Source: Amorphus coralli DSM 19760 (GTDB taxonomy: Bacteria; Pseudomonadota; Alphaproteobacteria; Rhizobiales; Amorphaceae). From it: DNA of 32,000 nt. The position numbers and the translations under genes are program-made. The notes under the pieces were generated by a model. It had not been told where the DNA came from. It ran no database searches and saw only the letters and a program-made list of their open reading frames with translations. How positions within the stretch are numbered: position 1 is the stretch's first letter; every line of letters starts with the position of its first letter. The stretch spans positions 154,126 to 186,125 of the forward strand of contig NZ_KB894577.1 of the NCBI RefSeq assembly GCF_000374525.1, read 5' to 3'. Shown here piece after piece: positions 12,564 to 26,825 of this stretch.

Positions 12564-12580
12564 TGGCTTTGATCCTTTCT

Positions 12581-12722
12581 CCCCTCACGCGGAGTTCGCT
12601 CCGCTCACTCGCTCCGGGTGGGCGGCCTCCGGCCGGCGCACGGTCGCGCGCTGGCGGGCGCAGTCCGGGAAGGCCGTGCCTTTTTCTCCGCTCACCCCCG
12701 CGAAGGCGGGGGTCCAGGGCGG
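12581..12722. repeat. mosaic repeat block (family C module + one family A hairpin unit) between g11 and g12
   Basis: CCCCTCACGCGGAGTTCGCTCCGCTCAC...CGGCGCACGGTCGCGCGCTGG recurs at 14555, 16992, 21322 and 23655. The family A unit lies at 12688-12720. Confidence 0.85.
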
Positions 12723-12747
12723 AAGATTGCTGCCTGTGTGTCACCCC

Positions 12748-13335
12748 TCAGCTTCCGCGCCGGCCGCGACCGACGGCGCGCGCCAGCATTGCCGTCACCT
12801 GCGCCTCCGACCGCCGGAAGCTCTCCGCATCCGGCGTCGTCACCGTCATCGTCACGTGCACCGGCGCCCCGCCGGACGCCGACACCCCGAGCCGTCCGTC
12901 CGGCCCGCGACTGAGCGGCAGGATCGCCTCGGGGCCGGCTTCGCCGGCGAGGCCGGTCCGACCCCCGCCGAGCGGAAATGTCGCCGGCGCGCCGATCACC
13001 CCGCCCTCGGCAAACGGCAGGAGATTGCCGGCGGTCTTCACCGCCCCTGCCGCCGCCGCTCCCAGGATCGAACCGCCCAGCCCGCTGCCGCCGATGAGCG
13101 CCTCGCCCAGCGGCTTCAGCGCCGCCTTCAGCACCGAGGCGGAGATGCTCCGCGCCGCCGACGCCAGCACCCGGTCGAGCCGCCGCCCCTCCACCACCGC
13201 CGATTTCAGACCGCTGACCACGGTGGCGGAAAAGCGTTCCGCCGCCCGCTCCAGCTCGGCCGAGGTGCGCGCCACGGAGGTCTCCAGCGCGTCGGGATCG
13301 AAGCCCGCGCCGGTGTCGTTCGGATCGTCCGCCAT
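12748..13335 (-). CDS. g11: GTA tape-measure protein (RcGTA g11-like)
   Basis: 195 aa, GGAGG SD. Gly/Ala-rich middle and ...GEAGPEAILPL... motif, in the position upstream of g12. Confidence 0.8.
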   Translation of the reverse strand: MADDPNDTGAGFDPDALETSVARTSAELERAAERFSATVVSGLKSAVVEGRRLDRVLASAARSISASVLKAALKPLGEALIGGSGLGGSILGAAAAGAVKTAGNLLPFAEGGVIGAPATFPLGGGRTGLAGEAGPEAILPLSRGPDGRLGVSASGGAPVHVTMTVTTPDAESFRRSEAQVTAMLARAVGRGRRGS

Positions 13336-13345
13336 GAGACCTCCG

Positions 13346-13510
13346 TCAGGATGAATCGTGTTGATCGATGAGTGCCCGCAGTCCGGCCGCCGCGCCCGTC
13401 CCGGGCGGCTCCAGCGCGGCGCGGAGTTCCGGCAGGCTCATGGCCCAGAAGGACGCGGGCGACAGCCGCATCTGCCCCAGCCCGAACCGCATCGCCTCGG
13501 TCCAGGGGAA
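13346..13510 (-). CDS. g10.1: GTA g10.1-like small tail-assembly protein; conserved part only, no canonical start upstream
   Basis: FPWTEAMRFGLGQMRLSPASFWAMSLPELRAAL matches the conserved small protein between g10 and g11. Immediately upstream the frame runs into family B repeats, with no ATG/GTG/TTG before FPW; the first ATG is internal at 13492. Confidence 0.5.
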   Translation of the reverse strand, partial: FPWTEAMRFGLGQMRLSPASFWAMSLPELRAALEPPGTGAAAGLRALIDQHDSS

Positions 13511-13517
13511 GGCCCGA

Positions 13518-13615
13518 GCGCTTCCAGGCGAAGTGGAAACCGGTTCGCCGTCCGGAAGCGCGGCTAAACAAGCGCTTCCAGGAAAAGTGGGCACCGGTTT
13601 TCCGTCCGGAAGCGC
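13518..13615. repeat. two tandem family B double-stem hairpins (13518-13561, 13572-13615; 54-nt period)
   Basis: GCGCTTCC-A-GGCGAA-GTGGAAACCGG-TTCGCC-GTCC-GGAAGCGC and GCGCTTCC-A-GGAAAA-GTGGGCACCGG-TTTTCC-GTCC-GGAAGCGC. Confidence 0.9.
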
Positions 13616-13662
13616 GCAGGAAGATTCTGCCGCCTCGCCGTCTTTGCGAAGGCCAGGCGGCT

Positions 13663-14007
13663 CTAGAGAGGGTTTTCGCCCGCTTCCTCCTCCCCCGCCC
13701 CGAAGGTCGCGGTCAGGAGATCGGTCACGATCGCGGCGAACCCCGCCGCCCCTCCGGGCGTGGTCATCGCCGCCACCTCGTCGTCGGACACCGGGTTGCC
13801 GGCGCCCCGGAGGCCCGCTCCGATCACCCGCACGGCGTCGCCGGCCTTGAGCCGGCCGGAACCGAAGCGTTCCGCCAGCGCCACCAGGTCGTCGGCCTGG
13901 AAGGCCGTTTCCAGCTCCGCCAGCGCCCCCAGCGTCAGGCACAGGGTGAAGCGGCGCCCGTCGAAGACGGCGGCGACCTCGCCGCGATGCCGGTTCGCCA
14001 TGGTCAT
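13663..14007 (-). CDS. g10: GTA tail assembly chaperone (RcGTA g10-like)
   Basis: 114 aa, ATGA overlap with g9. The motif GEVAAVFDGRRFTLCLTLGALAELE is typical of the GTA family protein. Confidence 0.8.
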   Translation of the reverse strand: MTMANRHRGEVAAVFDGRRFTLCLTLGALAELETAFQADDLVALAERFGSGRLKAGDAVRVIGAGLRGAGNPVSDDEVAAMTTPGGAAGFAAIVTDLLTATFGAGEEEAGENPL

Positions 14008-14417
14008 GCCGCCGCAAACGTCAGTTCGCCGGCCGATTCCAGCGAGATCTCGTAGTTCACCTCGCCATCATGATTGCCGGCATAGTCGAGACCGGTCAGC
14101 TGGAACGGCCCGGACACGGTACCGAAGTCCGGGATCACCACCTGCCAGCTCCGGATCGCGCCGGCGAAGAAGATGGTGCGCGCCGCGGCATCCGAGGCGC
14201 CGTCCTTGAAGATGCCCGAGCCCGACAGGCTGGCGCGCCGCACACCGGCCCCGTCCAGGAGTTCCCGCCAGCGCCCGGCCGACTCCGTGTCGGTCACGTC
14301 GACCGCATCGGCGTTGAACGACAGCCGCCGCGCCCTCAGCCCGGCCACCGTTACGAACGACCCCGCCCCGCTCTGGTCGAGCCGGAGCACGAGGTCCCTG
14401 CCCCGCTGTGCGCCCAT
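14004..14417 (-). CDS. g9: GTA major tail (tube) protein (RcGTA g9-like, TP901-1 family)
   Basis: ATG 14417 is preceded by AGGGAGG. 137 aa with the motif GSGIFKDGASD...FQLTGLDYAGNHDGEVNYEISLESAG. Confidence 0.85.
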   Translation of the reverse strand: MGAQRGRDLVLRLDQSGAGSFVTVAGLRARRLSFNADAVDVTDTESAGRWRELLDGAGVRRASLSGSGIFKDGASDAAARTIFFAGAIRSWQVVIPDFGTVSGPFQLTGLDYAGNHDGEVNYEISLESAGELTFAAA

Positions 14418-14443
14418 GCGCGCCTCCCTTGTCTGGTGGAAGA

Positions 14444-15116
14444 GCAAAGCCAGGCGAAGTGGGAACCGGTTCGCCGTCCGGCTTTGCGGAGTGAAAGAGC
14501 AATCCCAGGAAAAGTGGGAACCGGTTTTCCGTCCGGGATTGCGTGGAAAAGATGCCCCTCACGCCGAGTACGCTTTGCGCACCGGCTCCGCGTTTTTCCC
14601 GCTCACGCCGAACTCGCTTCGCGCGCCGGCTCCGCGAGGGCGTGGGTGTTTCTTTCCGCTCACGCGAGTTCGCTGCGCTCACCGCTGCGCGGGCGCGGCC
14701 TCCGGCCGGCGCGCGGTCGCGCGCTGGTGGGAGTTGTCCGGCAAGGCTGAACTTGTTGAGGGAGCGCGCGCCCCAAACTCCGCTCATCCCCGCGAAAGCG
14801 GGGATCCATAGGGCCTGTCAGCCGACACCCAGCGGAATGATGGATGTCTCAGACCCAGCCCAGAACTCCGCTCATTCCGGCGGAGGCCGGAATCCAGTTG
14901 CGGAGGAACTCCAGGCTGACTCGGCAAGAGGATGGGCGCAGCCACCGGCAGCGGGCCTCATCCCACCGCGCCGTGCGGGGCAAACTCGGCCCCTGGGTTC
15001 AGGCATTCGCCGGAACGAGCGGCTGGGGAAGGACCGTCGGGCATCTGAGCCCGCAGTCACAATCAAGCACCCAGCCAGCTTCTCCGCCGATCCCGACGAA
15101 AGCCGGGATCAGCCCG
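14444..15116. repeat. repeat block: two family B hairpins (14444-14487, 14499-14542), composite mosaic copy I (14555-15022), one degenerate A unit (about 15070-15116)
   Basis: Direct comparison with the blocks at 16992, 21322 and 24100 shows the same module order. Confidence 0.9.
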
Positions 15117-15119
15117 CCC

Positions 15120-15548
15120 CTACTTCGCGTAGTTGTAGATCGCGCAGGGATCCGCATCCGGCGTCGGCTTGGCGTCGCCGGTGTAGACGATCAGGCTCAT
15201 CCCGTCGTCGAACGGTGCGAGCACCAGATAGGTCGGCTTGTTGCCCGGCAGTCCGCAGAACTTGTTGCCGTTCAGGAGCGTCAGATCCTTCGGCGGGTCG
15301 ATGCGGAAGATCGAGCCCTCGACGGCGGCCTGCTGGTCGCCCCACTTGCCCTTTTCCGATCCGTCGGCGGCGATGGCCAGCGTGCTGCCGTCCTCGAAGG
15401 TGATGGAGTCTTCCGCCACCTCGATGCTGCCGGTGATGGAGGTCGCCGTGTTGCTCAGCGGCTCCCAGGTGCCGTCGAGACCGGCGGCCATCGCCCCCTG
15501 CGTCAGCCCGAAGGCCAGAACGGCTGCCGTCAGCATCGTCGTCTTCAT
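15120..15548 (-). CDS. secreted hypothetical protein inserted between g8 and g9
   Basis: ATG 15548 with GGAG upstream. Signal peptide MKTTMLTAAVLAFGLTQGAMA; strong GC3 bias; no GTA homologue recalled. Confidence 0.75.
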   Translation of the reverse strand: MKTTMLTAAVLAFGLTQGAMAAGLDGTWEPLSNTATSITGSIEVAEDSITFEDGSTLAIAADGSEKGKWGDQQAAVEGSIFRIDPPKDLTLLNGNKFCGLPGNKPTYLVLAPFDDGMSLIVYTGDAKPTPDADPCAIYNYAK

Positions 15549-15644
15549 AGTCTCGCTCCCCGCGGTTCCAGGCTCATCGATCCGAACGACACGATAAAGC
15601 CTGCAGGCCACAGCGTCACGACAGCTTTGTTGCGGGCTCGCCCC

Positions 15645-16052
15645 CTACTGTGTCGGCTCTGTAACCGCCCTCAGCCGGATGACGGCCACCACCGAGCGCC
15701 GGTCCGGTGCCTCGCGGAAAGCCCGATCGACGAGGGTGAGCGACACCAGCCGGTGCCCGTCGAGCGGCAGGGCCGTGCCCACCAGCACCGCCTCGATCCG
15801 GTCGGCGATTCCCGCCGCCTCCGAGCGCCCGTGCGCGGTGGAGTGGATGTCCAGCGCGATCCGATGTTCCCGGAGCGGTGGCAGGTCGCCGTCGAGCCGC
15901 CGGTCGCTCGCCGGCCCGAACGTCACGAACGGATGCGCCGCACCGCGCGGCGCCCGGTCGTGCACCCGAGCGCCCCCAAGCAGCGCCACCAGGTCGTCGT
16001 CTCCCGCAAGGGCGGCATGAACGGCCGCCTGCAGCGCCAGGCCCGCGTCCAT
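15645..16052 (-). CDS. g8: GTA tail terminator (RcGTA g8-like, DUF3168)
   Basis: 135 aa. The start shares 1 nt with the g7 stop. DUF3168-like N-terminus MDAGLALQAAVHAALAGDDDLVALLGGARVHDRAP...HPFVTFG. Confidence 0.8.
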   Translation of the reverse strand: MDAGLALQAAVHAALAGDDDLVALLGGARVHDRAPRGAAHPFVTFGPASDRRLDGDLPPLREHRIALDIHSTAHGRSEAAGIADRIEAVLVGTALPLDGHRLVSLTLVDRAFREAPDRRSVVAVIRLRAVTEPTQ

Positions 16053-16381
16053 CACCGTCCCTCCTCTTGGGCTTCCAGAACGAGATAGTGGTCGCCGCGC
16101 CCCTCCGGACGCGTCGCCAGGATCGTCAGGATCCGCGACCCCAGGACGATCCGCTGGCCGCCGGCGATCTCCGGATGCGCGCGGACCGTAATCCGGTGGG
16201 TGGCGATGCCGTCGAGACGGCCGGAGCGGTCGCGTTCGGCCGCGGCTAGGCTCTCCACCCGGCCCCAGACTGAGGCGACCGGCCGCCATGTCACCGTCGC
16301 GCCGCCGGCCCCGTCGGCCGTGCGCACCGGTGCCTCGATGGCAAGCCGCCGGTCGAGCGCACCGATCGCGGGCGCCTTCAT
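16052..16381 (-). CDS. g7: GTA head-closure / stopper protein (RcGTA g7-like, Phage_H_T_join)
   Basis: 109 aa, ATGA overlap with g6. The motif TVTWRPVASVWGRVESL...HRITVR is typical of the HK97 gp10-like family. Confidence 0.85.
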   Translation of the reverse strand: MKAPAIGALDRRLAIEAPVRTADGAGGATVTWRPVASVWGRVESLAAAERDRSGRLDGIATHRITVRAHPEIAGGQRIVLGSRILTILATRPEGRGDHYLVLEAQEEGR

Positions 16382-16941
16382 GCCACCCTCGTCAGGCGAT
16401 AGGGCCGCACCAGGCTGTCGACGCCCAGCGTGAGCGGTTCCGGCACCGGCGCCAGCGCCGCCTCGCGGTGGGCGTACCAGTGGGCAACGAGCAACAGGAT
16501 CGCCTGCCTGAGCGGCGCCGGAACGTGCGCCGGTTCGGTGCCGTAGCCAGCGGTGATGTCGATCTCGACCTGGCAGCCGGCGACAGAGCGCCTGGCCTCG
16601 GGCAGGACCCGGATCCGCGTCGTCGGCAGGTCCACCACGTAATCGGCTGGCGCCAGCACCCGCGCCGTTCCGTCGAGGTCGCGCAGCGTCACCGCGTCGA
16701 CGGACAGAACCGGTGCGGGCTCCAGCCGCACGATGCCGGCCGGGCGAAGGTCGTCGCGGATAATCCGCCAGCCCTGCTCCAGGAGTGCCCGGCCGGTAGC
16801 CGCCTCCACGTGGCGGCGCGCCGCTGCGATCAGGTCGAGGATGGCGGCGTCTTCGTCGGCACCGTCGACGCGCAGATGCCGCTTGGCGGCGGCCAGCGTC
16901 ACCGGCTCCACCGCCGGTGGATCGGTCAGGATGGCTGTCAT
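16378..16941 (-). CDS. g6: GTA head-tail adaptor (RcGTA g6-like, gp6 connector family)
   Basis: 187 aa. EPVTLAAAKRHLRVDGADEDAAILDLIAAARRHVEAATGRALL is the gp6-like connector signature. Confidence 0.85.
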   Translation of the reverse strand: MTAILTDPPAVEPVTLAAAKRHLRVDGADEDAAILDLIAAARRHVEAATGRALLEQGWRIIRDDLRPAGIVRLEPAPVLSVDAVTLRDLDGTARVLAPADYVVDLPTTRIRVLPEARRSVAGCQVEIDITAGYGTEPAHVPAPLRQAILLLVAHWYAHREAALAPVPEPLTLGVDSLVRPYRLTRVA

Positions 16942-16950
16942 GATCGCTCC

Positions 16951-16985
16951 AGAAAAGAAAGGCCCGGCTTCGGGTGAAGCCGGGC
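16951..16985 (-). terminator. rho-independent terminator (minus strand) immediately upstream of the g6 SD
   Basis: On the minus strand: GCCCGGCTTC-ACCC-GAAGCCGGGC (perfect 10-bp stem) followed by CTTTCTTTTCT. Confidence 0.6.
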
Positions 16986-16991
16986 ATTTAT

Positions 16992-17726
16992 CCCCTCACG
17001 CGGAATTCGCTCCGCTCACCCGCTCCGGGTGGGCGGGAGTCTTTTCCGCTCACGCCGAACTCGCTTCGCTCGCCGGCTGCGCGAGGGCGCCCTGACCGGG
17101 CGGCGGACGGTCGTCCGCGGGTTGGAGTTGTCCGGGAAGGCCTGACTTGGATGGGACAGCGCCGGCCCCACCCTCCGCTCATTCCGGCGAAGGCCGGAAT
17201 CCATAGGGCCTGTCGTCAGTCTCCCAACGGAATGATGGGTTGCACAAAGCCCACCCCAACCTCCGCTCATTCCGGCGAAGGCCGGAATCCAGGTACGGCG
17301 GGAAACCAGGCCGACGCGGGAAAAGGAGTGGCGCAGCCGCCGGCAACGGGCCTCATCCCACACCGCCGCCCGCAGCGACCTCAGTAACTGGATTCCGGCC
17401 TTCGCCGGAATGAGCGGGGGATGGAAGGGCCCGTCATCCCGCAACCCAGCGGGATCACTCCAGCATCAGCCCACACTCCGCTCATCCCGACGAAAGTCGG
17501 GATCCAGGGCCGCAGTCCGCAGGATCGGAGTTCGACCGCCCTGGACCCCGGCTTTCGCCGAGGTGAGCGGCTAAGGGGGAAAACCCGTCAGCCCGCCACC
17601 TCAGCTGGATCACTCCAGCACCCGCCCCACCCTCCGCTCATCCCCGCGCAGGCGGGGATCCAGGGCCACGGGCCGCAGCGTCGGAGACTGCAGCCCTGGA
17701 CTGCCGCCTGCGCGGGAGTCAGCGGG
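16992..17726. repeat. composite mosaic copy II (16992-17417) plus two further roughly 151-bp units, each ending in an inverted family A doublet (17478-17570, 17634-17725)
   Basis: Module-by-module match to copies I, III and IV. It fills the 813-bp gap between g5 and g6. Confidence 0.9.
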
Positions 17727-17754
17727 ATGGCTCGAGCCCCAGAAACCCCCGCCC

Positions 17755-19011
17755 CTAGTCGGAGAACTGCAGCAGCTTGATCGCGTCGAAGTCCTGGACG
17801 CCGCCGCCCACCCGCTTGGTCGTGTAGAACAGCACGTAGGGCTTGGAGGAGTAGGGATCGCGCAGCACCCGCACCCCCATCCGGTCGACGATCAGGTAGC
17901 CGCGGCGGAAGTCGCCGAAGGCAATGGCCGTCTCGTCGGAGCCGATGTCCGGCATGTCCTCGGCTTCCACGACCGGGAAGTTCATCAGCGACGCAGCCCC
18001 GCCCGGTACCGCCGGCGGCTGCCACAGATAGGTGTCGTCGCCGTCCTTCATCTTGCGCACCGCCGCCTGGGTGCGCCGGTTCATCACGAAGGTCGCGTTC
18101 TGCCGGTAGCCGGCCTTAAGCGCGTAGACGAGGTCGACCAGCACATCGCCGGGGTCCGTCGCCGGAAACGCCCCGTCGGCGCCGGTCGAGACCGTACCGA
18201 TGGTCTCCCAGGCCCAGGCGCTCTCGTCGACGGTGGTGTAGGCGAGAAACCCGGTCGGCTTCTTGTCGCCGTCGCCGGCGACGAAGGCGGCGCTTTCCTG
18301 TTCGGCAAACGCCTGGTCGATCTCGCCGGCCAGCCACTCGCCCACGTCGATCGCCGCGTCGTCGAGCAGCGTCGCCGAGGCCGCCGGCATGGCGTAGAGC
18401 TCCATCGTCGGGAACACGAGCTCCTTCAGCACCGGCGCGTCGGTCTCCGGGCGCGCGTCGCTCTCGCCGACCCAGCCCACCGCCGGGCCGGAGGTGGCGA
18501 ACGGCTTCTTGAAGCTGGTGCCGGACACCTGCCGTACCCCGGAGATCGCGCGGATCGGCGAGATCTCCGAAAGCCGGCGGCCGATCTCCCGGTCCACCTC
18601 CTCCGGCACCAGGTAGCCGGCGTCGTCGGCGGCGGCCGTGAGCGCCTTCATCTCCAGCGCCTTCAGGTCGTGGTCGCGCCCGGCCCGCACATAGGTCTCG
18701 AAAGCCGCCTTGTGCTCGATGGACGCGGCGCTGCGGAAGGCCGGCCCGTCGCCGGAGATCGCCGGCCGCTTCGCCTTCAGCACCAGGTCGTCGACCCGCG
18801 CCCTGTGGGCGTCCAGCGCCCGGTCCACCCGGTCGAGCTTCTCGATGGTCACCACGTCGGCGGCGGAGCGGCGCTCCAGCTCGTCGAGGCGCTGGTCGTT
18901 GGTCTCCTTGAACACCTCGAAGGCGCCCATGAAGTCGGAAAAGGCGGAGCCGAGGTCGCCGTCGCCGCCGGCCGCCTTGGTCTCCGGGGCGCAATCCTGA
19001 AATCCGGTCAT
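17755..19011 (-). CDS. g5: GTA major capsid protein (HK97 fold, RcGTA g5-like)
   Basis: ATG 19011 is preceded by GAGAGGA. 418 aa: an N-terminal delta-like coiled region, then ...YLVPEEVDREI...FKKPFATSGP...GYLIVDRMGVRVLRDPYSSKPYVLFYTTKRVGGGV. Confidence 0.9.
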   Translation of the reverse strand: MTGFQDCAPETKAAGGDGDLGSAFSDFMGAFEVFKETNDQRLDELERRSAADVVTIEKLDRVDRALDAHRARVDDLVLKAKRPAISGDGPAFRSAASIEHKAAFETYVRAGRDHDLKALEMKALTAAADDAGYLVPEEVDREIGRRLSEISPIRAISGVRQVSGTSFKKPFATSGPAVGWVGESDARPETDAPVLKELVFPTMELYAMPAASATLLDDAAIDVGEWLAGEIDQAFAEQESAAFVAGDGDKKPTGFLAYTTVDESAWAWETIGTVSTGADGAFPATDPGDVLVDLVYALKAGYRQNATFVMNRRTQAAVRKMKDGDDTYLWQPPAVPGGAASLMNFPVVEAEDMPDIGSDETAIAFGDFRRGYLIVDRMGVRVLRDPYSSKPYVLFYTTKRVGGGVQDFDAIKLLQFSD

Positions 19012-19042
19012 CCTGTTGTCCTCTCTGCCTGGATGCGGAACG

Positions 19043-19080
19043 AAAAAAGCGGGCGCCGGCCGCCTGGCCCGCCTCCCGCT
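19043..19080 (-). terminator. terminator-like imperfect hairpin plus U6 between g4 and g5 (minus strand)
   Basis: Minus strand: AGCGGGAGGCGGGCC-AGGC-GGCCGGCGCCCGCT followed by TTTTTT. Confidence 0.45.
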
Positions 19081-19118
19081 TGCTGTGTCCTGAAAGTCCG
19101 ATGGTCGAAGGGGCGCCC

Positions 19119-19727
19119 TCAACGCGCCCGCAGCAGCTGCGCCGCCTGCCGGAAGCCGCTTGCCAGCCGGGCCGGATCGCTCCCCGGCCACAGCGTGGCC
19201 GCCTTGGCGGCGCGCACCCGCGCCTCCGGCAGCATCGGGAAGGTCACGATGGAGATCTCCCAGAGATCCAGCTCGATCAGCACGCGATGCCCGCTCTTGC
19301 GGTCGGTACGGGCCCGCACCGTTCGAAAGCCGATGGAGAGCCCGTCGAGCACGCCCTCGCGCATCAGCGCCTTCACCTCGCGCGCCCGCCGCGTCTCGGC
19401 CGAAAGCCGGCCGCGCACGAACAGGCCGCGCGCGTCCTCGGCAATGGTCACGAACCGGCCGATGGGCTCGGCCGGGTCGTGCTGGTAGAGGAGCTTCACC
19501 GCCCCCGCGCCCTTCTTCGCCAGCGAGGCGGTAAACGCCCCCGGCGCCACCACGTCGCCGGACAGGTCCGGCCGGCCGAACAGCGTCGCGTACCCCGCGA
19601 ACGCCCCGTCGGAGGAGACGGTCGGCTGCGCTGCCGGCGAGAACTTCACCTCCAGCGCGGGAGCAGCCCGTCCGCCCCTGGCCCTGCCGTGTCTCCCGTC
19701 CTTCGTGTCGTCAGCTCGACCGCTCAT
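19119..19727 (-). CDS. g4: GTA prohead protease (HK97 family, S78; RcGTA g4-like)
   Basis: 202 aa. FAGYATLFGRPDLSGDVVAPGAF...LLYQHD...PIG...GLSIGF...DLWEISIVTFP. Confidence 0.9.
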   Translation of the reverse strand: MSGRADDTKDGRHGRARGGRAAPALEVKFSPAAQPTVSSDGAFAGYATLFGRPDLSGDVVAPGAFTASLAKKGAGAVKLLYQHDPAEPIGRFVTIAEDARGLFVRGRLSAETRRAREVKALMREGVLDGLSIGFRTVRARTDRKSGHRVLIELDLWEISIVTFPMLPEARVRAAKAATLWPGSDPARLASGFRQAAQLLRAR

Positions 19728-19870
19728 CGCCCCACCTCCACGATCCGCGGCCCGGATCCACGCGCCTCCGATCGCACCCGGATCAGCCGCTCCATCTCCG
19801 CCACGAAGGCCTCAAACACGCGCCGATGGTCGGCGGGACGCCCCCCCGCTGCCCTTCTTTCGATCTGCAT
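19724..19870 (-). CDS. small hypothetical protein (48 aa) translationally coupled to g4
   Basis: ATG 19870 lies 7 nt after AGGAGG. The stop overlaps the g4 ATG (ATGA). Sequence: MQIERRAAGGRPADHRRVFEAFVAEMERLIRVRSEARGSGPRIVEVGR. Confidence 0.5.
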   Translation of the reverse strand: MQIERRAAGGRPADHRRVFEAFVAEMERLIRVRSEARGSGPRIVEVGR

Positions 19871-19892
19871 GATGTCCTCCTGAGGAGCCCAA

Positions 19893-20116
19893 CCTCTGAC
19901 TTGCCGAACACCTCCAACCAGCGCACGACCGTGCGCCGCACACGCAATCGCAGGAAAAGTGCCCTTGCGGTTTTCCGTCCGCGATTGCGACCCAGAGATC
20001 ATCAGGCCACCCTCCCGGAGCCGGTGCGCGCAAGCGCACTCGGCGCGAGGGGCAAAAAAGGTCATTCGCCCCGCAAAGCCGGACGGAAAACCGGTTCCCA
20101 CTTTTCCTGGCTTTGC
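19893..20116. repeat. mosaic repeat block (family C pieces in reverse orientation; family B hairpins at 19944-19988 and 20073-20116)
   Basis: The reverse complement of 19893-19940 matches GGCGGCGCRCGGTCGCGCGCTGGTGGG...; the B units have intact outer and inner stems. Confidence 0.85.
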
Positions 20117-20117
20117 T

Positions 20118-20282
20118 TCAATCCCGCTCCCGGAAGATCGCCGTCAGCCGGGCGATCTCGTTGACGAAGTCGTTGAAGCGCCGGTTCGAGACCGCCAGTT
20201 CCCGCAGCGCCCAGACCAGGAGCGCGCTCGCCGACGAGGCCCAGAGAAACAGTGCCAGGTGCGCCAGGTCGCCGCGCTCCAT
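20118..20282 (-). CDS. g3.5: small membrane protein in the g3.5 position
   Basis: 54 aa, MERGDLAHLALFLWASSASALLVWALRELAVSNRRFNDFVNEIARLTAIFRERD, with one TM helix. It lies 26 nt downstream of the portal stop. Confidence 0.5.
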   Translation of the reverse strand: MERGDLAHLALFLWASSASALLVWALRELAVSNRRFNDFVNEIARLTAIFRERD

Positions 20283-20307
20283 CACCGACTGGGTGACCGG
20301 GTCCACC

Positions 20308-21306
20308 TCATCCCTCCGGCGCGGCCGGATCGCCGCGCGGCGAGTAGCCCACCGCTGCCCGCTTCTCGTCGTCGGAGAGGAACGAGGCCTCTTCCAGCCG
20401 CCGCCACAGCGCCTCGCGCTCCGACGACAGCGCCTCCACGCCGTCGGCATCAAAGGCGAGCCGCAGCCCCTCGCCGAAGGCGGGCCCGAGCCAGCCGCCG
20501 ATCGCCGCCGCCGTGCGCCCGACGAGCGGCAGCACCGTCTGGCGCCAGAACGCCCGGTTCGCTTCCTGGAAGTTGGCGTAGGTGTTGTCGCCGGGGATGC
20601 CGAGCAGCATCGGCGGCACCCCGAAGGCGAGCGCGATCTCCCGCGCCGCCTGGTTCTTCGCCTCGATGAAGTCCATGTCCTTGGGCGTGAGCGCCATCGC
20701 CCGCCAGTCGAGCCCGCCTTCCAGAAGCAGCGGCCGCCCGGCGTTGCGCGCCCCCTGGTAGCCCTCCTCCAGCTCGCCCTTCAGCCGCTCGAACTGATCC
20801 GACGTCAGCGTCCCGTCGCCGCCGGAATAGACCAGCGCGCCGGAGGGCCGCGCTGCGTTGTCGAGCAGCGCCTTGTTCCAGGCACCGGCGGCGTTGTGGA
20901 TGTCGAGGCTCGTCTGCGCCGCCTCGATGGGCGCGAAACCGTAGTGGTCGTTGAGCGGATGGAACAGCGTCAGGTGCAGGATCGGCGACGCCCCCTCCTC
21001 GCCCGCCGGAAACCGCACCGAGCGGCCGTTGACGGTGTACTCGAACGCCTCCGGCCAGCCGCTCGCTCCCGGCAGAACCTTCATCCGGTCGGGCCTCAGC
21101 GCGAACAGCTCGCGCACCCGTCCCTCGACGCTGACGGCCTCCAGGTAGGCGTTGCCGGCCACCAGCAGGTGGCCGTAGAGCGCCTCCATCAGCCCCGTCC
21201 CCGCCTGGCCGGCGTTCGGCTGCGCGATCACCGGCCCGGTGCGCGAGGCCTTCGCCTCGGGCGCGGCTTTCCCGCCCGCCCGCCTGAAGACGCGATCGAT
21301 CAGCAT
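20308..21306 (-). CDS. g3: GTA portal protein (HK97 family; RcGTA g3-like), apparently about 55-60 aa shorter than usual
   Basis: AAGAGGA SD. MLIDRVFRR...EAKASRTGPVIA joins directly to QPNAGQAGTGLMEALYGHLLVAGNAYLEAV...; the rest is a typical portal (NAARPSGALVY, FIEAKNQAAREIALAFGVPPMLLG). Confidence 0.85.
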   Translation of the reverse strand: MLIDRVFRRAGGKAAPEAKASRTGPVIAQPNAGQAGTGLMEALYGHLLVAGNAYLEAVSVEGRVRELFALRPDRMKVLPGASGWPEAFEYTVNGRSVRFPAGEEGASPILHLTLFHPLNDHYGFAPIEAAQTSLDIHNAAGAWNKALLDNAARPSGALVYSGGDGTLTSDQFERLKGELEEGYQGARNAGRPLLLEGGLDWRAMALTPKDMDFIEAKNQAAREIALAFGVPPMLLGIPGDNTYANFQEANRAFWRQTVLPLVGRTAAAIGGWLGPAFGEGLRLAFDADGVEALSSEREALWRRLEEASFLSDDEKRAAVGYSPRGDPAAPEG

Positions 21307-21321
21307 GGTTGGGTCCTCTTG

Positions 21322-21753
21322 TTTCGCTCACGCCGAGCTCGCTTCGCTCGCCGCTGCGCGGGCGCAGCCTGTTGTCTGTCCCCCTCACGCCGAGTTCGCT
21401 GGCGCTCACCGGCTCCGGGTGGGCGCCCTGACCGGGCGGCGGACAGTCGTCCGCTGCTGGAGGCGGTCCGGAGAGACTTGAGTTGGCTCACTCCGAAGTT
21501 GCCGCAACCTCCGCTCACTCCCGCGTAGGCAGGGATCCATAGGGCCTCTCAGCGATCTCCCAACGGGATGATGGCTCACTCCGCACCCACCCCAATCCCC
21601 GCTCATTCCGGCGAAGGCCGGAATCCAGTTGCGGCGGGAAACCAGGACAGCCCGGCAAGTGGATAGACGCAGCCACCGACAACGGGCCTCATCCCACCAC
21701 GCCACCCGCAGCAATCTCGGCATCTGGATTCCCGCCTTCGCCGGAATGAGCGG
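21322..21753. repeat. composite mosaic copy III filling the g2-g3 gap
   Basis: Same C - A(...CATAGGGCC) - spacer(...CCCAACGGRATGATGG...) - A doublet order as copies I and II. Confidence 0.9.
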
Positions 21754-21773
21754 GGTTTGAGGCGCACACCCCC

Positions 21774-23132
21774 TCAGACCCGCCGGATCGCCGGGCGGCT
21801 GACCGGCCCCAGCATCAGCGCGGTGATCGCCCAGACCAGCGCGTCGAGCCGGTCCGGCGAGCGCCCGTTCGCGGTGCCGTCCGGGCCGAAGCCGCAGAGC
21901 TCGTCCTCCAGCTCCGGGAATGCGCCGGCATGGCGCACCCGGCCCTGGGCGTAGAGCGTCGCCACCGGCTCCGCCCGCAGCCACTTGCCGCGGCTCGCCC
22001 GCACGCTCGTCACCGGCACGCCGGCATCCACCTGGCGGATCACCGCCGCCACCATGTCGCCGCCCTGGTTCACCTCGGCGACCAGCGCGTCCGCCTGGAA
22101 CCGCCGGTAGGCCGCCACCGCCTTCGCCGCCCACACCGCCGGTGCCGCCGCCGCCACCGTCTCGTCGGCCAGCACGTAGCCGATCCCGTCCGCCGCGATG
22201 CCCGCCGCCACGATCCCGCACACCGAGGCCCTGCCGCCCGCCGCCGGCGGGTCCACCGCCACCACGATGCGGCTCATCTCCGGCGCGCCGTCGACCCGTG
22301 CCCGCTCCACCGTCGCCCGGCTCCACAGCGCGTCCTCCCGGTCGGTGAGGATCTCACCGTCCAGCTCCTGCCGGCCGAGCCGGGTGCCGCGATAGCGCCC
22401 CACCACCCGCTCCAGGAAGCCGGGCGCCAGATTGGCCGCGTTGTCCTTCGTCGGCATCCGCGCCACTTCCGTGCGCGGCGCCTCCATCAGCCGTGCCAGA
22501 AGCGGGATCGGCCGCGGCGTCGTCGTCACCACCTGGCGCGGCCGCTCGCCGAGCCTGAGCGCGAACTGCAGCATGTCCCACGCCTCCTCCGCCAGCCGCC
22601 ACTTGGCCAGCTCGTCGGCCCAGGCGGCGCCGAACTGCGGCCCGCGCAGGCTTTCCGGATCGTCGGCGGAAAACAGCTCCGCCACCGCGCCGTTCTTCCA
22701 TTCCAGCCGCCGGCGCGAGGGCTGCCACAGCGGCCGCTCGTCGGCGGCATGCACCGACAACAGCCCCGACACGCCCTCCACCATCACGCCGCGCGCGTCG
22801 ATCAGGGTTTCGCCGACAAGCGCGATCCGGCCGACGGGCGCGGAGGCGAACCCGTCGCGGCCCAGCGCCATGCCCTTCACCCATTCCGCGCCCGCCCGCG
22901 TCTTGCCGGCGCCACGCCCGCCCAGGATCAGCCAGACGGTCCAGTCGCCGTCGGGCGGCAGCTGCTCGTCGCGGGCCTGGAACATCCATTCCCGCGCCAG
23001 CCACGCCAGCGTCTCCGGCGGCAGCTCGGCCAGGAACGCGGCGCGCTCATCCGGGTCGAGCCCGTCGAGCGAGCCGATCAAGGCGGTCCGCAAGGTCCTG
23101 TCTGAGGGTGTCGATGTCCGGCCGGTGTCCAT
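21774..23132 (-). CDS. g2: GTA large terminase (RcGTA g2-like)
   Basis: Walker A motif LILGGRGAGKTRAGAEWV and a conserved N-terminus LIGSLDGLDPDERAAFLAEL. The start at 23132 is chosen by homology and overlaps the g1 3' end; alternative TTG at 23093. Confidence 0.9.
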   Translation of the reverse strand: MDTGRTSTPSDRTLRTALIGSLDGLDPDERAAFLAELPPETLAWLAREWMFQARDEQLPPDGDWTVWLILGGRGAGKTRAGAEWVKGMALGRDGFASAPVGRIALVGETLIDARGVMVEGVSGLLSVHAADERPLWQPSRRRLEWKNGAVAELFSADDPESLRGPQFGAAWADELAKWRLAEEAWDMLQFALRLGERPRQVVTTTPRPIPLLARLMEAPRTEVARMPTKDNAANLAPGFLERVVGRYRGTRLGRQELDGEILTDREDALWSRATVERARVDGAPEMSRIVVAVDPPAAGGRASVCGIVAAGIAADGIGYVLADETVAAAAPAVWAAKAVAAYRRFQADALVAEVNQGGDMVAAVIRQVDAGVPVTSVRASRGKWLRAEPVATLYAQGRVRHAGAFPELEDELCGFGPDGTANGRSPDRLDALVWAITALMLGPVSRPAIRRV

Positions 23133-24057
23133 GCGCCGCCTCTCCGCCGTCTGCCTGCGCCTTGCGGTCGAGGGCGAGCAGGATGTCCAGAGTGCGCGCC
23201 AGCGCCGCCAGCACCCTGGTGTCGCGTTCCGCGTCCTCGGCGGCATCGGGATCGAAGCGCGCCTCGATGGCCGATATCCGCGCCTCGAACACCCGGTAGA
23301 GCCGGGCGATCATCGCGGCCCGGTCCGACGGCGAGCGGTGCAGCGCCCGGCCCTGCGGCCGGCGCGGCAGTGCGGGTTTGGATGGAGAGTTCTTGCCGCG
23401 CAGATGCGCTGAATTCTCTCCACTCACGCCGATCTCGCTTCGCTCGCCGGCACCGCGAGGGCGGCCTGGTTCTTCAGGTCGCAAAGCCGGACGGCGAACC
23501 GGTTCCCACTTCGCCTTGCTTTGCTCGGGCGGCGCGCAGTCGCGGGCTGGTGGGTGCTGTCCGGCGGGGCCCAGTTCGGGGCCCTCCGCCGCCTCCCCCA
23601 AACGCCGCTCCTTCCCGCGAAGGCGGGAATCCAGGGCTTCAGGCTTCGGACCGTATTGTTTGCCCCTCCCGCCGAGTTCGCTTGCGCTCACCGGCTCCGG
23701 GTGGGCGCCCTGACCGGGCGGCGCGCAGTCGCGCGCTGGTGGGTGCTGTCCGGCGGGGCCCAGTTCGGGGCCCTCCGCCGCCTCCCCCAAACGCCGCTCC
23801 TTCCCGCGAAGGCGGGAATCCAGGGCTCCAGACTCCGAACCCGGCGGGCCGGCGTCCGTCCCGTCCAGCCCCGTGCGGCCCCTGACCCTTGGCGGCCTGA
23901 GCGTCCGGTCCCAGCCCTCCCGGCGGGCGCGGTCGCGCAGCCCGGATTCGGACATGCCGTAGCGGTCGCCGATCTCCCGCAGCGTTCCCACACCCGCCTC
24001 GAAGGCGGCTCTTGCGGCCGCCCAGTCCGGTCTGAACGACGGAAGGGGCTGGTCCAT
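23047..24057 (-). CDS. g1: GTA g1-like (small-terminase-type) protein carrying a roughly 430-bp in-frame repeat-derived insertion
   Basis: N-terminal HTH-like module MDQPLPSFRPDWAAARAAFEAGVGTLREIGDRYGMSESGLRDRARREGWDR and C-terminal helical module AMIARLYRVFEARISAIEARF...DIDTLRQDLADRLDRLA are in one uninterrupted frame. They are separated by translated repeats. Confidence 0.55.
   Translation of the reverse strand: MDQPLPSFRPDWAAARAAFEAGVGTLREIGDRYGMSESGLRDRARREGWDRTLRPPRVRGRTGLDGTDAGPPGSESGALDSRLRGKERRLGEAAEGPELGPAGQHPPARDCAPPGQGAHPEPVSASELGGRGKQYGPKPEALDSRLRGKERRLGEAAEGPELGPAGQHPPARDCAPPEQSKAKWEPVRRPALRPEEPGRPRGAGERSEIGVSGENSAHLRGKNSPSKPALPRRPQGRALHRSPSDRAAMIARLYRVFEARISAIEARFDPDAAEDAERDTRVLAALARTLDILLALDRKAQADGGEAAHGHRPDIDTLRQDLADRLDRLARRARPG
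23405..23832. repeat. repeat block inside g1: family C pieces, family B hairpin (23481-23524), and a 112-bp segment duplicated with a 189-bp period (23527-23638 and 23716-23827), each ending in a family A unit
   Basis: The two 112-bp copies differ at a single position by eye (CGCGGGCTGG vs CGCGCGCTGG). Confidence 0.9.
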
Positions 24058-24099
24058 GATGCGCGTGTCCCTCTGCCAGAAATGAAACCTGTTCACGTC

Positions 24100-24491
24100 G
24101 CGAGCACGAACGGAAAACCGCGAGAGCACTCTTCCTGCGCTCGCTCGACCGGCGCGTGGTCGCGCACTGGTTGGCGTGATCCGGCAAGATGGTGGTCGGT
24201 TCGGGAGGAGCCCGCCCCATCCTCCGCTCATTCCCGCGAAAGCGGGGATCCATAAGGCCTGTCGGCGAGCCCGATGACATGCAAGATGTCTCCCCGGCCA
24301 AACCAAACGCCGCTCATTCCCGCGAAGGCGGGAAACCAGGGCGGCACGCCGCAGCCGGAAAATTCCACCTCTGACCATCCCGGGAACCGCAGTTACCGGC
24401 GACCAAAGCTCAGGTCGATGCGGGGCGAATGGGAGTTCACGGAACTTCGGAGACCGAAGCCCTGGATGCCCGCCTTCGCGGGAATGTGCGG
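24100..24491. repeat. composite mosaic copy IV (degenerate B hairpin 24100-24144, C remnant, A unit, A doublet 24310-24491) 43 nt upstream of the g1 start
   Basis: Module order matches copies I-III. Confidence 0.85.
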
Positions 24492-24597
24492 ACAAATAGG
24501 GATCGCCGAGGCACACCAGCCGCCCGTCCCGATCCGGGACCACGCCCGGCGCCCTCCTTCCGGAAGCCCCCGGCCGCAGCTGTCCGACGATGCCTGA

Positions 24598-24626
24598 ACC
24601 CTAGCGAACCAGCGTCACGATGTCAA
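24598..24626 (-). promoter_or_regulatory. candidate sigma70-type promoter facing the GTA cluster
   Basis: Minus strand: A-tract, TTGACA (24626-24621), 17-nt spacer, TAGGGT (24603-24598). It sits at the AT-rich islet / repeat boundary, about 540 nt upstream of g1. Confidence 0.3.
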
Positions 24627-24703
24627 GGATTTTTTTCCTAGTTATCTACGTGCCTTCGCTTAACGAAGTTGGCCAGAGATCCCCAAGTGTAAAATGCCGA
24701 ACA

Positions 24704-25315
24704 TCACTCCTTAAGATCAGGAAGAATACTCCCGAAAATTCCTGGAACAGCTGGGAGACCAAGTGCACCTATCCCGAATGGCGCTGAAATGGGCGATGTG
24801 GATTGGCGATACATAAGCGCGGCGACTACGCTGCTCTTTGAAAGGGCCTCGCAGAGGCTGTGCATTTTTATTTTAAGGGCATCAACCTCCATAACTTCGT
24901 CATAGAAGCGCTTTGCCGGCCATACTTCGTCAGGCACATCAAGCTTGCTACTAGCCTTTACCACGAGAAATCGAACGGAGCCCGCATCATCATTCTCCGG
25001 ACCAAACAGGTCATGAGCCATCATATTCCTAATCGGCGACTTATCTGAAATTCTTTGGAGCGCGGATTTATAGGACGTTATCTCATCTCTATTTAGAGGC
25101 GAAATATCGACTAAAGTCTTAGAAATTTTGATTTTATTACTAAGTGTAATGTTTTTACATAGGATTATTCTTTGGATATCGGTTAATTCAAGACTTTTTG
25201 AGATGGCGTTGTTCAACGAGCCTTCCATGATAGCCCAGCGTTGAAGGAAGAATCCAACGAGAGCACATGCAGCAATTTGCGAAGGAGTATTTTCAGGAAG
25301 TCGCACTGACCGCAC
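24704..25315 (-). CDS. HEPN-motif protein (putative RNase toxin / abortive-infection effector) in an AT-rich islet
   Basis: 203-aa ORF (GTG start; alternative starts downstream). R-x4-H motif with the canonical Asn (IRNMMAHD, residues 96-101). Hydrophobic Gly-rich C-terminus FGIGALGLPAVPGIFGSIL. Base composition is clearly AT-richer than the flanks. Confidence 0.5.
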   Translation of the reverse strand: MRSVRLPENTPSQIAACALVGFFLQRWAIMEGSLNNAISKSLELTDIQRIILCKNITLSNKIKISKTLVDISPLNRDEITSYKSALQRISDKSPIRNMMAHDLFGPENDDAGSVRFLVVKASSKLDVPDEVWPAKRFYDEVMEVDALKIKMHSLCEALSKSSVVAALMYRQSTSPISAPFGIGALGLPAVPGIFGSILPDLKE

Positions 25316-25354
25316 CCCAATTCATTGAAGAAGGCGCTCAATTATAATAGGGGC

Positions 25355-25525
25355 CTATCGATCCGCGATATATTCAAGTATCTCTCGGATCGAGGTTATC
25401 TCGAATCTTATCCGGGTAATCTCATCAACCAAATAGCTAAGTTGTATTCCAGGCATATTGTCAATAGAGACGCCCTCAGTCTGTTTAGCCCTCTCTTTAA
25501 TGACCTCTTCCGCATTGTGGTGCAC
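25355..25525 (-). CDS. small acidic hypothetical protein (56 aa) upstream of the HEPN gene
   Basis: Not in the ORF track (below the size cut-off). GTG 25525 lies 5 nt after AGGAGG. Sequence: VHHNAEEVIKERAKQTEGVSIDNMPGIQLSYLVDEITRIRFEITSIREILEYIADR. Confidence 0.35.
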   Translation of the reverse strand: MHHNAEEVIKERAKQTEGVSIDNMPGIQLSYLVDEITRIRFEITSIREILEYIADR

Positions 25526-25597
25526 AGCATCCTCCTATGATTGTTGTATAGGGATGATACCATCGACACCTTCCATGTCACGCCCATCCCCTTCACT

Positions 25598-26008
25598 CCG
25601 CTCATTCCCGCGAAGGCGGGAATCCAGGGCTGCGGGCATCAGGGCAAGCTGTCGTAGAGATCGCTCCAGGTCGGGTTCAGCCCTTCGATCAGTCGAAGCT
25701 TCCAGCGCCGGCGCCACTTCTTGATCTGCCGCTCGCGCACGAAGGCGGCCTCGCGGGTGTCATGCACCTCGTACCAGACCAGCCCGGCAACGCCGTAGGT
25801 TCGGGTGAAGCCCGGCCTGAGCCTGGTCCGATGCTCGTGGACGCGTCGGGCAAGATCGTCCGTATGGCCCGTATAGAGCGTCCCGTTCGGCTCGCTGGCG
25901 AGAATGTAGACGTAGAAGGCCATCGGTCCGCCGCCGCTGCTGTCCGGCAGTCTACAGCATCCTGCAGCGCAAGCCGCCCTGGATTCCCGCCTTCGCGGGA
26001 ATGAGCGG
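25598..26008. mobile_element. GIY-YIG gene flanked by perfect 33-bp terminal inverted repeats of family A (candidate autonomous/parent unit of the repeat family)
   Basis: 25598-25630, CCGCTCATTCCCGCGAAGGCGGGAATCCAGGGC, is the exact reverse complement of 25976-26008. Only the GIY-YIG ORF lies between them. Confidence 0.5.
25639..25923 (-). CDS. GIY-YIG (URI-domain only) nuclease family protein
   Basis: 94 aa. MAFYVYILASEPNGTLYTGHTDDLARRVHEH...E.QIKKW is the classic COG2827-type GIY-YIG core. Confidence 0.9.
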   Translation of the reverse strand: MAFYVYILASEPNGTLYTGHTDDLARRVHEHRTRLRPGFTRTYGVAGLVWYEVHDTREAAFVRERQIKKWRRRWKLRLIEGLNPTWSDLYDSLP

Positions 26009-26055
26009 CGTTTGGGGTGGCGCGCGGTGCCTCCTCAACCGGCCTCCCCCCACCC

Positions 26056-26559
26056 TCACGCCACCTCGTCGGTGCGTTCCCGGTCCCGGCGCTTTACCGC
26101 CCGCTCGTTCGCCCAATCCAAAAGATTGGCCTCTACGACGGTCCCGGTGGTGACCTGTCCCCGCCGGTGCAGCCAGGCAGCCACTTCGGACCAGTCCCAG
26201 AGCGGCGCCTCCGACGAGACCTTGGCGACCGCAGCCGGGAACCCCTGTCCCCGCTCGCCCCGGGCAAAAAGACTGACGGCCTGACGGCTGATCCCGGCGC
26301 GCTCGGCGATGTCGGAAGCCGTGACCAGCGCATCGGGCTCGATCCGCTCGATGCGCGCGCCGGCCCGTTCCACATCGGCGACGGCCGAGGCGATCGCGTG
26401 GACGAGATTCTTCGCTTCCCGGTCGAAGTCCAGCAGGATCCGGCCGCGCACCACCGACACCGTCGCGTCGTCGCAGCCAGCCTCGTAGAGGCGGTCCTCC
26501 AGCGCATCGGATGCATGATCCAGCCCCGACGCCACGATGATGAATCTATGCGCCTTCAT
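26056..26559 (-). CDS. DNA-binding protein: HicB-like N-terminal domain plus HTH (putative antitoxin)
   Basis: ATG 26559 is preceded by GGGAGG. 167 aa. HTH segment LVTASDIAERAGISRQAVSLFARGER. It lies 17 nt downstream of the HicA-like ORF. Confidence 0.5.
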   Translation of the reverse strand: MKAHRFIIVASGLDHASDALEDRLYEAGCDDATVSVVRGRILLDFDREAKNLVHAIASAVADVERAGARIERIEPDALVTASDIAERAGISRQAVSLFARGERGQGFPAAVAKVSSEAPLWDWSEVAAWLHRRGQVTTGTVVEANLLDWANERAVKRRDRERTDEVA

Positions 26560-26575
26560 CGGCACCTCCCTGACA

Positions 26576-26803
26576 TCAATGCGCGCACCTCGCCGCCGCC
26601 CGGCGTATCGCCGCGGCATGATTGGCCGGACTCCGGGGCGTCGACCAGACGGAGATCCGGCACCCGGACCGGTCATGCTGCGGGCAGAGCAGCCGCCCCC
26701 AGCAGTGAGCGCTTCGGCCCGCAGCCTTGAACGTCCATCCGAGCGCCTCGAGTTCGGCCACCGCCGCCTCGATGTCCTTGTCCGGATGCCGGGGCCTGCG
26801 CAT
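26576..26803 (-). CDS. small HicA-like (alpha-beta3-alpha pattern) protein, putative toxin
   Basis: ATG 26803 is preceded by GGAGAG. 75 aa. DIEAAVAELEALGWTFKAAGRSAHCWGRLLCP...CRISVWSTP...NHAAAIRR resembles the HicA layout, with SAH in place of GSH. The family assignment is uncertain. Confidence 0.4.
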   Translation of the reverse strand: MRRPRHPDKDIEAAVAELEALGWTFKAAGRSAHCWGRLLCPQHDRSGCRISVWSTPRSPANHAAAIRRAAARCAH

Positions 26804-26825
26804 CGCTCTCTCCAATCTGGAGTAT

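Follow-up and report, generated by a model that had tools for sequence, protein, structure and literature searches.

In this study, we analyzed a 32,000-nt stretch of the Amorphus coralli DSM 19760 genome (contig NZ_KB894577.1; hereafter the window, to which all positions refer unless a locus number, L, precedes them) in which a small GIY-YIG nuclease gene lies between two inverted hairpin repeats. Our results indicated that the locus very probably represents the Ssn/SRM system, with the 94-aa protein being a member of the Ssn nuclease family and the 33-43-nt repeat units its cognate SRMs. A sequence-only reading of this DNA had proposed the pairing of a GIY-YIG nuclease with the hairpin repeat that floods the locus, and its author was not aware of such a partnership being established. 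The pairing is true, but it had already been published in March 2025 (Chenal et al., 2025, Nat Commun 16:2388, PMC11893778), and the locus is therefore a new example and not a new system. The link to the published system was found because dRS3-like sequences were noticed in the flanks of the Neisseria homologue.

The cassette comprises three features, as follows.

25639..25923, minus strand: ssnA homologue, single-domain GIY-YIG nuclease (ORF list; Pfam GIY-YIG, E = 1.1e-15)
25976..26018, minus strand: SRM unit upstream of ssnA (covariance model, 67.3 bits; exact inverted copy of the other arm)
25588..25630, plus strand: SRM unit downstream of ssnA (covariance model, 64.5 bits)

Arm 25598-25630 is the exact reverse complement of arm 25976-26008, and the pair can be extended to 39 nt at 95% complementarity (25595-25633 and 25973-26011, 339 nt apart). 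The 94-aa ORF is the only one between them, so that the repeat search and the ORF list agree with the earlier claim of 33 of 33 complementary positions enclosing the GIY-YIG ORF alone. The weak similarity that had been seen further outward corresponds to the leader gCCCCAAaCt, which is semi-conserved and precedes CCGCTCA on its 5' side. In the upstream unit the head CCGCTCAT points outward and the tail CCAGGGC toward the gene, the unit ending 52 nt from the ATG; as single-stranded DNA (ssDNA) it folds into an 8-bp hairpin of -10.9 kcal/mol. The downstream unit lies 8 nt past the stop codon, also with its head outward, and its ssDNA fold reached -9.4 kcal/mol. The whole cassette (25594-26017) aligned in a single block, inverted and at 80.7% identity, with A. 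suaedae (L081 10330-9899), and the inverted alignment stops at the outer unit edges.

The window protein has over 1,400 relatives, and its identity to a protein of Amorphus coralli is 100%. Residues 3-76 are covered by Pfam GIY-YIG, with no further domain match; the Pfam match is to the general GIY-YIG model only, and NCBIfam gave none above cut-off. Residues Y6, Y17, R27, H31, E64, and N83 were invariant in an alignment of 35 homologues. The AlphaFold2 model showed one compact domain (pLDDT 93), and the nearest solved structures were the UPF0213 proteins 1ZG2 and 1YWL, followed by Slx1, UvrC-N, and I-TevI. The UPF0213/YhbQ-type proteins (BH0048, PDB 1ZG2; EF2693, PDB 1YWL) share the GIY-YIG fold, are 27-32% identical to the query and have no assigned function. 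Slx1, a structure-specific nuclease acting on branched DNA, shares the fold as well, but it has an added RING domain and needs Slx4. The N. gonorrhoeae homologue is 57% identical to the window protein (pairwise BLASTP E = 2e-35), and its record was matched by tblastn at E = 1e-11 for a database of 7.3 Gb. The neisserial protein used in this comparison was the gonococcal one, and the published homologue criterion is tblastn E < 1e-10. Canonical NTS motifs occur in both flanks of the gonococcal gene.

The 94-aa SsnA of N. meningitidis (NMV_0044) belongs to CDD family cd10448 and consists of a single GIY-YIG domain; it binds the NTS motif CGTCATTCCCGCGMAVGCGGGAATCYRG solely as ssDNA and with nanomolar affinity, cuts a few nucleotides upstream of it, and is inactive on double-stranded DNA (dsDNA), RNA, and the reverse strand (Chenal et al., 2025). 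Cleavage was lost in the Y6A, Y17A, and E64A mutants; the C after the palindrome was critical for binding and the three bases before it for cleavage, and changing the stem sequence while keeping the hairpin abolished activity. Across genomes, an SRM was found near 71% of homologues and on both sides of 42%, and 81% of the genomes with more than 200 SRMs encoded a homologue (Chenal et al., 2025). The window locus agrees with this description in many respects. Of the 28 positions of the NTS motif, 26 are identical in its unit, the binding-critical C among them; its protein has the same length as N. meningitidis SsnA, the same single-domain build, and Y6, Y17, and E64; and inverted units enclose the gene while many gene-less copies lie nearby, as in Neisseria. 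Within the stretches covered, we counted 21 copies in 32 kb here and 10-21 per 20 kb in the A. suaedae loci. The palindromic core ATTCCC-N8-GGGAAT of the window units (TCATTCCCGCGAAGGCGGGAATCC) is also that of the neisserial dRS3/NIME repeats; dRS3 was defined as a bare palindrome, and the oriented head and tail of NTS/SRM, present here, were recognized only in 2025. There are differences as well: a semi-conserved CCCCAAACT leader takes the position that the variable cut region has in Neisseria, a single genome holds several paralogues, each with one main stem subtype, and the host is a marine alphaproteobacterium whose repeats crowd a gene transfer agent (GTA) cluster and not surface-protein genes.

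The units are abundant in the window, as the sequence-only reading had claimed. The 18-nt hairpin core occurred 15 times at ≤3 mismatches against 0.08 expected, the 33-nt unit occurred 22 times at ≤9 mismatches, and a covariance model built from 20 copies matched 21 strong copies (44-67 bits), all confined to 12.7-26.0 kb. Outside the cassette, unit search and the covariance model, together with the further evidence named, identified the following elements.

12678..12720, plus strand: solo SRM unit (covariance model, 59.9 bits)
14770..15032: three-unit composite (+ + -), ~260 nt
17165..17427: three-unit composite (+ + -)
17468..17580: gene-less SRM doublet, tails inward, 27-nt spacer, REPIN-like
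17624..17735: gene-less SRM doublet, tails inward, 26-nt spacer (also ssDNA fold)
21501..21763: three-unit composite (+ + -), between the portal and terminase genes
23526..23841, plus strand: two solo SRM units (23595-23637 and 23784-23826) on a direct repeat (covariance model, repeat search)
24214..24501: three-unit composite (+ + -), different inner spacer

The composites at 14770, 17165, and 21501 are homologous over their full length. All six inverted doublets listed earlier were present with the arm orientation given for them, the CCAG tails facing inward in every one, and with spacers of 26-116 nt (30-125 bp in the earlier reading). As ssDNA, the doublet 17468..17580 folds into one long hairpin (-36.1 kcal/mol, z = -5.3). 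The proposed covariation of the stem stood up to both controls: 95% of stem cells pair and five of the eight pairs change on both sides, values reached by none of 500 shuffles, and a shifted register destroyed the pairing. In the unit alignment, the invariant columns comprise the head CCGC, the stem, and the CCA that follows it. Known RNA families were ruled out as an explanation of the units, because Rfam at gathering thresholds and a tRNA scan returned no matches in the window. The CcrM site GAATC was also considered as a defining feature and rejected; it is present in the Amorphus unit tails, but the Caulobacterales version has GACCC. The direct repeat, whose 127-nt copies (23526-23652 and 23715-23841; 96% identity, 189-nt spacing) each carry one SRM unit, was found by a general repeat search and went unreported by Tandem Repeats Finder. 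A 498-aa ORF running through it (23047-24543) consists of translated repeats (LDSRLRGKERR...) and is probably spurious.

The association of gene and repeat was then examined in 80 loci from other alphaproteobacterial genomes (Caulobacter, Brevundimonas, Phenylobacterium, Hyphomonas, Bauldia, Rhodoplanes, and Xanthobacteraceae), whose homologues are 59-74% identical; 78 of them were testable. Most of these genes sit between inverted copies of the unit, for example CCGCTCATCCCCGCGAAAGCGGGGACCCAG. A gene was scored as bracketed when its two 150-nt flanks shared a model-free inverted repeat scoring ≥20, and random 280-nt intervals from the same loci served as controls; this test was used in place of a 25-bit nhmmer threshold, which undercounted bracketed genes as its model had been trained on Amorphus copies. 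Specifically, 59 of 78 homologue genes were bracketed compared with 0 of 395 random intervals. The units are also concentrated at the gene, 178 of 223 lying within 200 bp of it in a zone that makes up 4.3% of bases. In the commonest layout, the ATG is preceded at 10-20 nt by a forward unit and the stop is followed at 12-30 nt by a reverse unit, both with heads outward. Among unit pairs with tails inward and 150-3000 nt apart, 49 of 52 enclose the gene, and the remaining three are weak hairpin-only matches beside dnaN in Caulobacter.

A reciprocal sample, picked by the unit alone, comprised 120 metagenome stretches (564 kb) with 238 units. Here, 88 of 131 clusters were tails-inward doublets, the spacer having a median length of 25 nt. 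The gene was present on 4 of the 120 stretches, directly abutting units in three of the four, and the sole tails-inward pair at gene-size spacing enclosed it. The repeat is thus a dispersed doublet family, and the gene occupies a doublet. Outside Alphaproteobacteria, the homologues in Aeromonas caviae and N. gonorrhoeae are flanked by CGTCATTCCCGCGCAGGCGGGAATCC, which in Neisseria is the dRS3 palindrome, and the same motif-gene-motif layout with canonical heads was found in Aeromonas, Azospirillum, Rhizobium, and Neisseria. The association of gene and repeat is very strong and specific in Alphaproteobacteria, with single examples in Gamma- and Betaproteobacteria. These cross-genome tests, together with the published biochemistry on homologues (Chenal et al., 2025), bear out the partnership proposed earlier and show this GIY-YIG protein to be a dedicated partner of the repeat family.

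Several observations weigh against assigning the locus to Ssn/SRM. First, the window head is CGCTCAT and not CGTCAT, so that the three bases before the palindrome are CTC instead of GTC, and it is these bases that matter most for cleavage in N. meningitidis. Owing to this head, the published pattern HGTCWYN(0-2)YYVSBRHN(0-5)WNVSBRGN(0-2)RNCYNB had no match in the window, A. suaedae L081, or Brevundimonas L066; relaxing the head alone recovered the units, and the same script found the unrelaxed pattern in the Neisseria, Aeromonas, Azospirillum, and Rhizobium loci. Second, roughly a quarter of the homologue genes have no clear flanking units, and a Caulobacter paralogue downstream of dnaN (L003, L004, L008, and L010), 70% identical, has no canonical SRM flanks but weak hairpin-only matches; the flanking motifs have therefore been lost from some members of the family or were never present in them. 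Third, to our knowledge natural competence is not known for Amorphus, and we infer that ssDNA has a source there in vivo.

Some further features of the cassettes in other genera were recorded. No conserved partner gene was found, the cassette neighbors in other genera being unrelated housekeeping genes. At nine Brevundimonas loci (L066 5001-5366; L028, L035, L042, L049, L059, L064, L067, and L074), the ssnA frame reads through the downstream unit, and the resulting tail of 20-30 residues includes WVPAFAGMSG, the translated unit. On plasmid AZO_p3 of Azospirillum lipoferum 4B (L209 1379-1887), an ssnA homologue with a full SRM doublet on each side is inserted into an Fe-S cluster assembly operon, where it separates sufB from sufC. 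In L001, a 65-nt inverted repeat is formed by ~1880-1945 and a partner arm downstream of the gene, and its arms resemble an SRM unit with ~35 nt inserted in the loop (TTCCGCTCGTCCCCGC...GGCGGGGACCCAT). Caulobacter BapE was considered as a relative; the BapE promoter sequence was absent from the loci examined, and the lead was dropped.

By homology with Neisseria SsnA, the A. coralli protein would ignore dsDNA and RNA and would bind and cut ssDNA only. A unit exposed as ssDNA is predicted to fold into its 8-bp hairpin (computed -9 to -11 kcal/mol); the protein would then recognize the oriented head, the stem, and the C that directly follows the palindrome on its 3' side, and would cut hydrolytically a few nucleotides 5' of the head. 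With the heads outward, each strand would offer one forward site, and the predicted cut would fall just outside the cassette or doublet. The role of the enzyme may lie in restricting or trimming incoming or exposed ssDNA that bears the motif. Restriction of incoming motif-bearing ssDNA is the role demonstrated in homologues, and in Neisseria the enzyme cuts transformation by motif-bearing DNA ~five-fold (Chenal et al., 2025).

Up to four ssnA paralogues are present per Amorphus species, and four protein clades can be distinguished among them.

Clade I (P0001, P0003, P0004): flanking stem TTCCCGC...CCAGGG
Clade II (P0023, P0121): flanking stem TTCCAGC
Clade III (P0123, P0125): flanking stem TTCCGGC
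Clade IV (P0152, P0185; A. coralli P0157 in the same clade): flanking stem TCCCCGC...CCATAG

The correspondence of clade and stem subtype holds at 8 of the 9 Amorphus loci examined; only A. orientalis P0007 departs from it, as this protein belongs to clade I but has a TCCCCGC stem in the one flank recovered. Taken together with the published dependence on stem sequence (Chenal et al., 2025), this pattern suggests that several cognate nuclease-motif pairs may coexist within one genome. A reading of TTCCGGC in A. coralli versus TTCCAGC in A. suaedae as a family-wide compensatory change was withdrawn, because both subtypes occur in Amorphus sp. MBR-141, where they flank different paralogues. The cassette of A. 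orientalis P0123 (L214 1409-1840) has its flanking units reversed, with heads toward the gene; the other Amorphus cassettes have heads outward, except that of P0125, which has a full doublet on each side.

The ssnA gene is syntenic and stable within Amorphus and within Brevundimonas: in three species, clade I has the GTA cluster on one side and a branched-chain amino-acid ABC operon on the other, in two species clade II is enclosed by corA and a PNPOx gene, and ten Brevundimonas-type loci are syntenic. The unit content of the same GTA spacers differs between species, the protease-portal spacer holding five units in A. suaedae versus none in A. coralli, and the connector-capsid spacer seven in A. 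coralli versus two in A. suaedae. Unit-sized indels separate A. suaedae and Amorphus sp. MBR-141, which are 88% identical; no target-site duplication was seen at them in alignments that are rough there, and noise in the reconstruction of empty and filled sites from A. coralli and A. suaedae prevented the junctions from being placed exactly.

This turnover bears on a first alternative, which is compatible with Ssn identity, namely that the nuclease acts as a RAYT-like mobilizer that copies and spreads the doublets, with the gene cassette as the autonomous or domesticated master element. The differing spacers and the unit-sized indels speak for it, as do the dominance of tails-inward doublets, the pairing of each protein clade with one main stem subtype, and a layout like that of a RAYT flanked by REPs. 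The same hypothesis was raised by Chenal et al. (2025), who in their Discussion likened NTS-ssnA-NTS to IS200/IS605, REPs, and BIMEs and suggested domestication. In RAYT/REP-REPIN-BIME systems (Nunvar et al., 2010, PMC2817692; Bertels and Rainey, 2011, PMC3116915), as here, a small nuclease-type gene lies between two inverted hairpin repeats, the repeats are mostly inverted doublets with short spacers, and the gene is low-copy and vertically inherited. The window system differs from them in that its protein is a GIY-YIG enzyme (its sole domain match, with the fold of UPF0213, Slx1, and UvrC) and not a Y1/HUH transposase, in that the head is CCGCTCAT with no GTAG or CGTC, and in that each doublet offers one cut site per strand. 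Unlike the Y1 transposases of RAYTs, GIY-YIG enzymes act by hydrolysis, with no covalent DNA intermediate, and so cannot perform strand transfer in the manner of HUH/Y1 transposases. A single forward site per doublet strand argues against IS200/IS605-style excision, which needs two cuts on one strand, and with both properties combined any part of the nuclease in spreading the repeat would need host repair or recombination. Insertion sequences and MITEs have terminal inverted repeats with target-site duplications; inverted ends are present here, and the rough alignments at the unit-sized indels showed no duplication. In addition, the genes hold their places across species, and the window composites are only ~80% alike and hence not recent. 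On balance we consider mobilization by the nuclease possible but doubtful.

A second alternative holds that the repeats spread by other means and that the gene is a selfish, homing-type element, a free-standing GIY-YIG homing endonuclease that enters existing doublets. The gene does occupy exactly the spacer of a doublet, it is found inside operons (sufB/sufC in Azospirillum and GTA terminase/portal in Hyphomonas), and two Amorphus species carry the cassette at the same site in opposite orientations. Homing endonucleases of the GIY-YIG type combine the nuclease with a DNA-binding domain and reside in introns or at phage intergenic sites, whereas the 94-aa protein is a single domain, has no DNA-binding domain of that kind and is encoded at a chromosomal intergenic site. 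Moreover, the published Ssn enzymes leave dsDNA uncut (Chenal et al., 2025), the paralogues keep their chromosomal positions across species, and only 4 of the 120 unit-bearing metagenome stretches carry the gene. We consider homing improbable. Finally, coincidence or pure regulation, with the hairpins acting as REP-like terminators or mRNA stabilizers that do not interact with the nuclease, could appeal to the T-runs that follow some Caulobacterales units and to the position of units in the intergenic spacers of a long operon, but it is scarcely credible given that the bracketing counts rule out chance, that the oriented non-palindromic head and tail with mirror-symmetric conservation point to recognition at the DNA level, and that homologues bind the motif at nanomolar affinity and leave RNA unbound (Chenal et al., 2025).

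Besides the Ssn/SRM cassette, the window contains a complete RcGTA-like GTA cluster on the minus strand (6715-23246), which includes the following genes.

21774-23246, minus strand: GTA terminase
20308-21306, minus strand: GTA portal
17755-19191, minus strand: GTA capsid
6715-10659, minus strand: GTA_TIM protein

Further GTA genes encode a protease, a connector, a tail completion protein, a tail assembly chaperone (TAC), and a DUF2460 protein. The spacers of the cluster, which are normally tight, are enlarged by SRM units at 12.7, 14.8-15.0, 17.2-17.7, and 21.5-21.8 kb. Similar placements were observed elsewhere. In Hyphomonas atlantica (L025 5001-5300) and an uncultured relative (L055 5001-5300), ssnA lies between the GTA terminase and portal genes, with SRM doublets in other GTA spacers of L025, and in a Bradyrhizobiaceae metagenome-assembled genome (L026 5001-5285) it is located ~1.5 kb upstream of the GTA terminase. 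Chance is unlikely to have produced two or three such cases (rough estimate p ~0.002-0.02, assuming ~40 independent synteny groups and ~0.6% chance per group), and shared ancestry of the position may be an alternative to independent recurrence. Our literature search found no paper linking Ssn with GTAs. DNA delivered by GTAs is imported as a single strand via competence-type machinery. That alphaproteobacterial Ssn/SRM is functionally tied to GTAs, and that one genome may hold several orthogonal nuclease-motif pairs, is a rather unlikely extension. If it were true, the SRM hairpins in and around the GTA clusters and the adjacent ssnA would give the cell a means of trimming incoming strands, or of vetoing their recombination, at chosen loci, as a counterpart of the NTS/SsnA control of transformation in Neisseria.

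In relation to the published work, our analysis mainly confirms the reach of Ssn/SRM into marine Hyphomicrobiales and its very wide distribution in Caulobacterales. Three points are new. First, the CGCTCAT head variant is dominant in these lineages and is missed by the published pattern, and for this reason the published counts of motif-flanked homologues are probably underestimates. Second, four Amorphus protein clades are each flanked by one main stem subtype; paralogues with their own stem subtype would offer natural orthogonal enzyme-site pairs, suited to the ssDNA tools that the discoverers propose. Third, the gene and its repeats are repeatedly found beside or inside GTA clusters, which bears on the role of Ssn outside naturally competent bacteria.

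A PADLOC candidate defense pair, PDC-M06 (26056-26815, minus strand), directly adjoins the cassette; the A component is a 79-aa, HicA-like protein (E = 1e-22) and the B component has 169 aa (E = 3e-30). On the other side, an AT-rich island (24600-25560) has a GC content of ~0.45-0.52 versus 0.70 around it, and its ORF 24704-25315 (203 aa, minus strand) had no match in Pfam, NCBIfam, or PADLOC. The island is probably a recent foreign insertion beside the cassette, and both it and the PDC-M06 segment (~900 bp) are missing from A. suaedae. In A. orientalis (L083 9300-9870), a HigB-like toxin and helix-turn-helix (HTH) antitoxin pair stands directly upstream of the ssnA cassette, echoing the toxin-antitoxin-like PDC-M06 pair beside that of A. 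coralli. In addition, a second, unrelated family of short repeats, with motifs such as CCCCTCACGCCG...GCTCACCGGCTCCGGG and CGCACTCGGCGTGAGG, occurs in Amorphus intergenic DNA at the following sites.

Window ~21330-21420 and 21765-21800: second repeat family
A. suaedae L081 6890-7060 and 10650-10720: second repeat family

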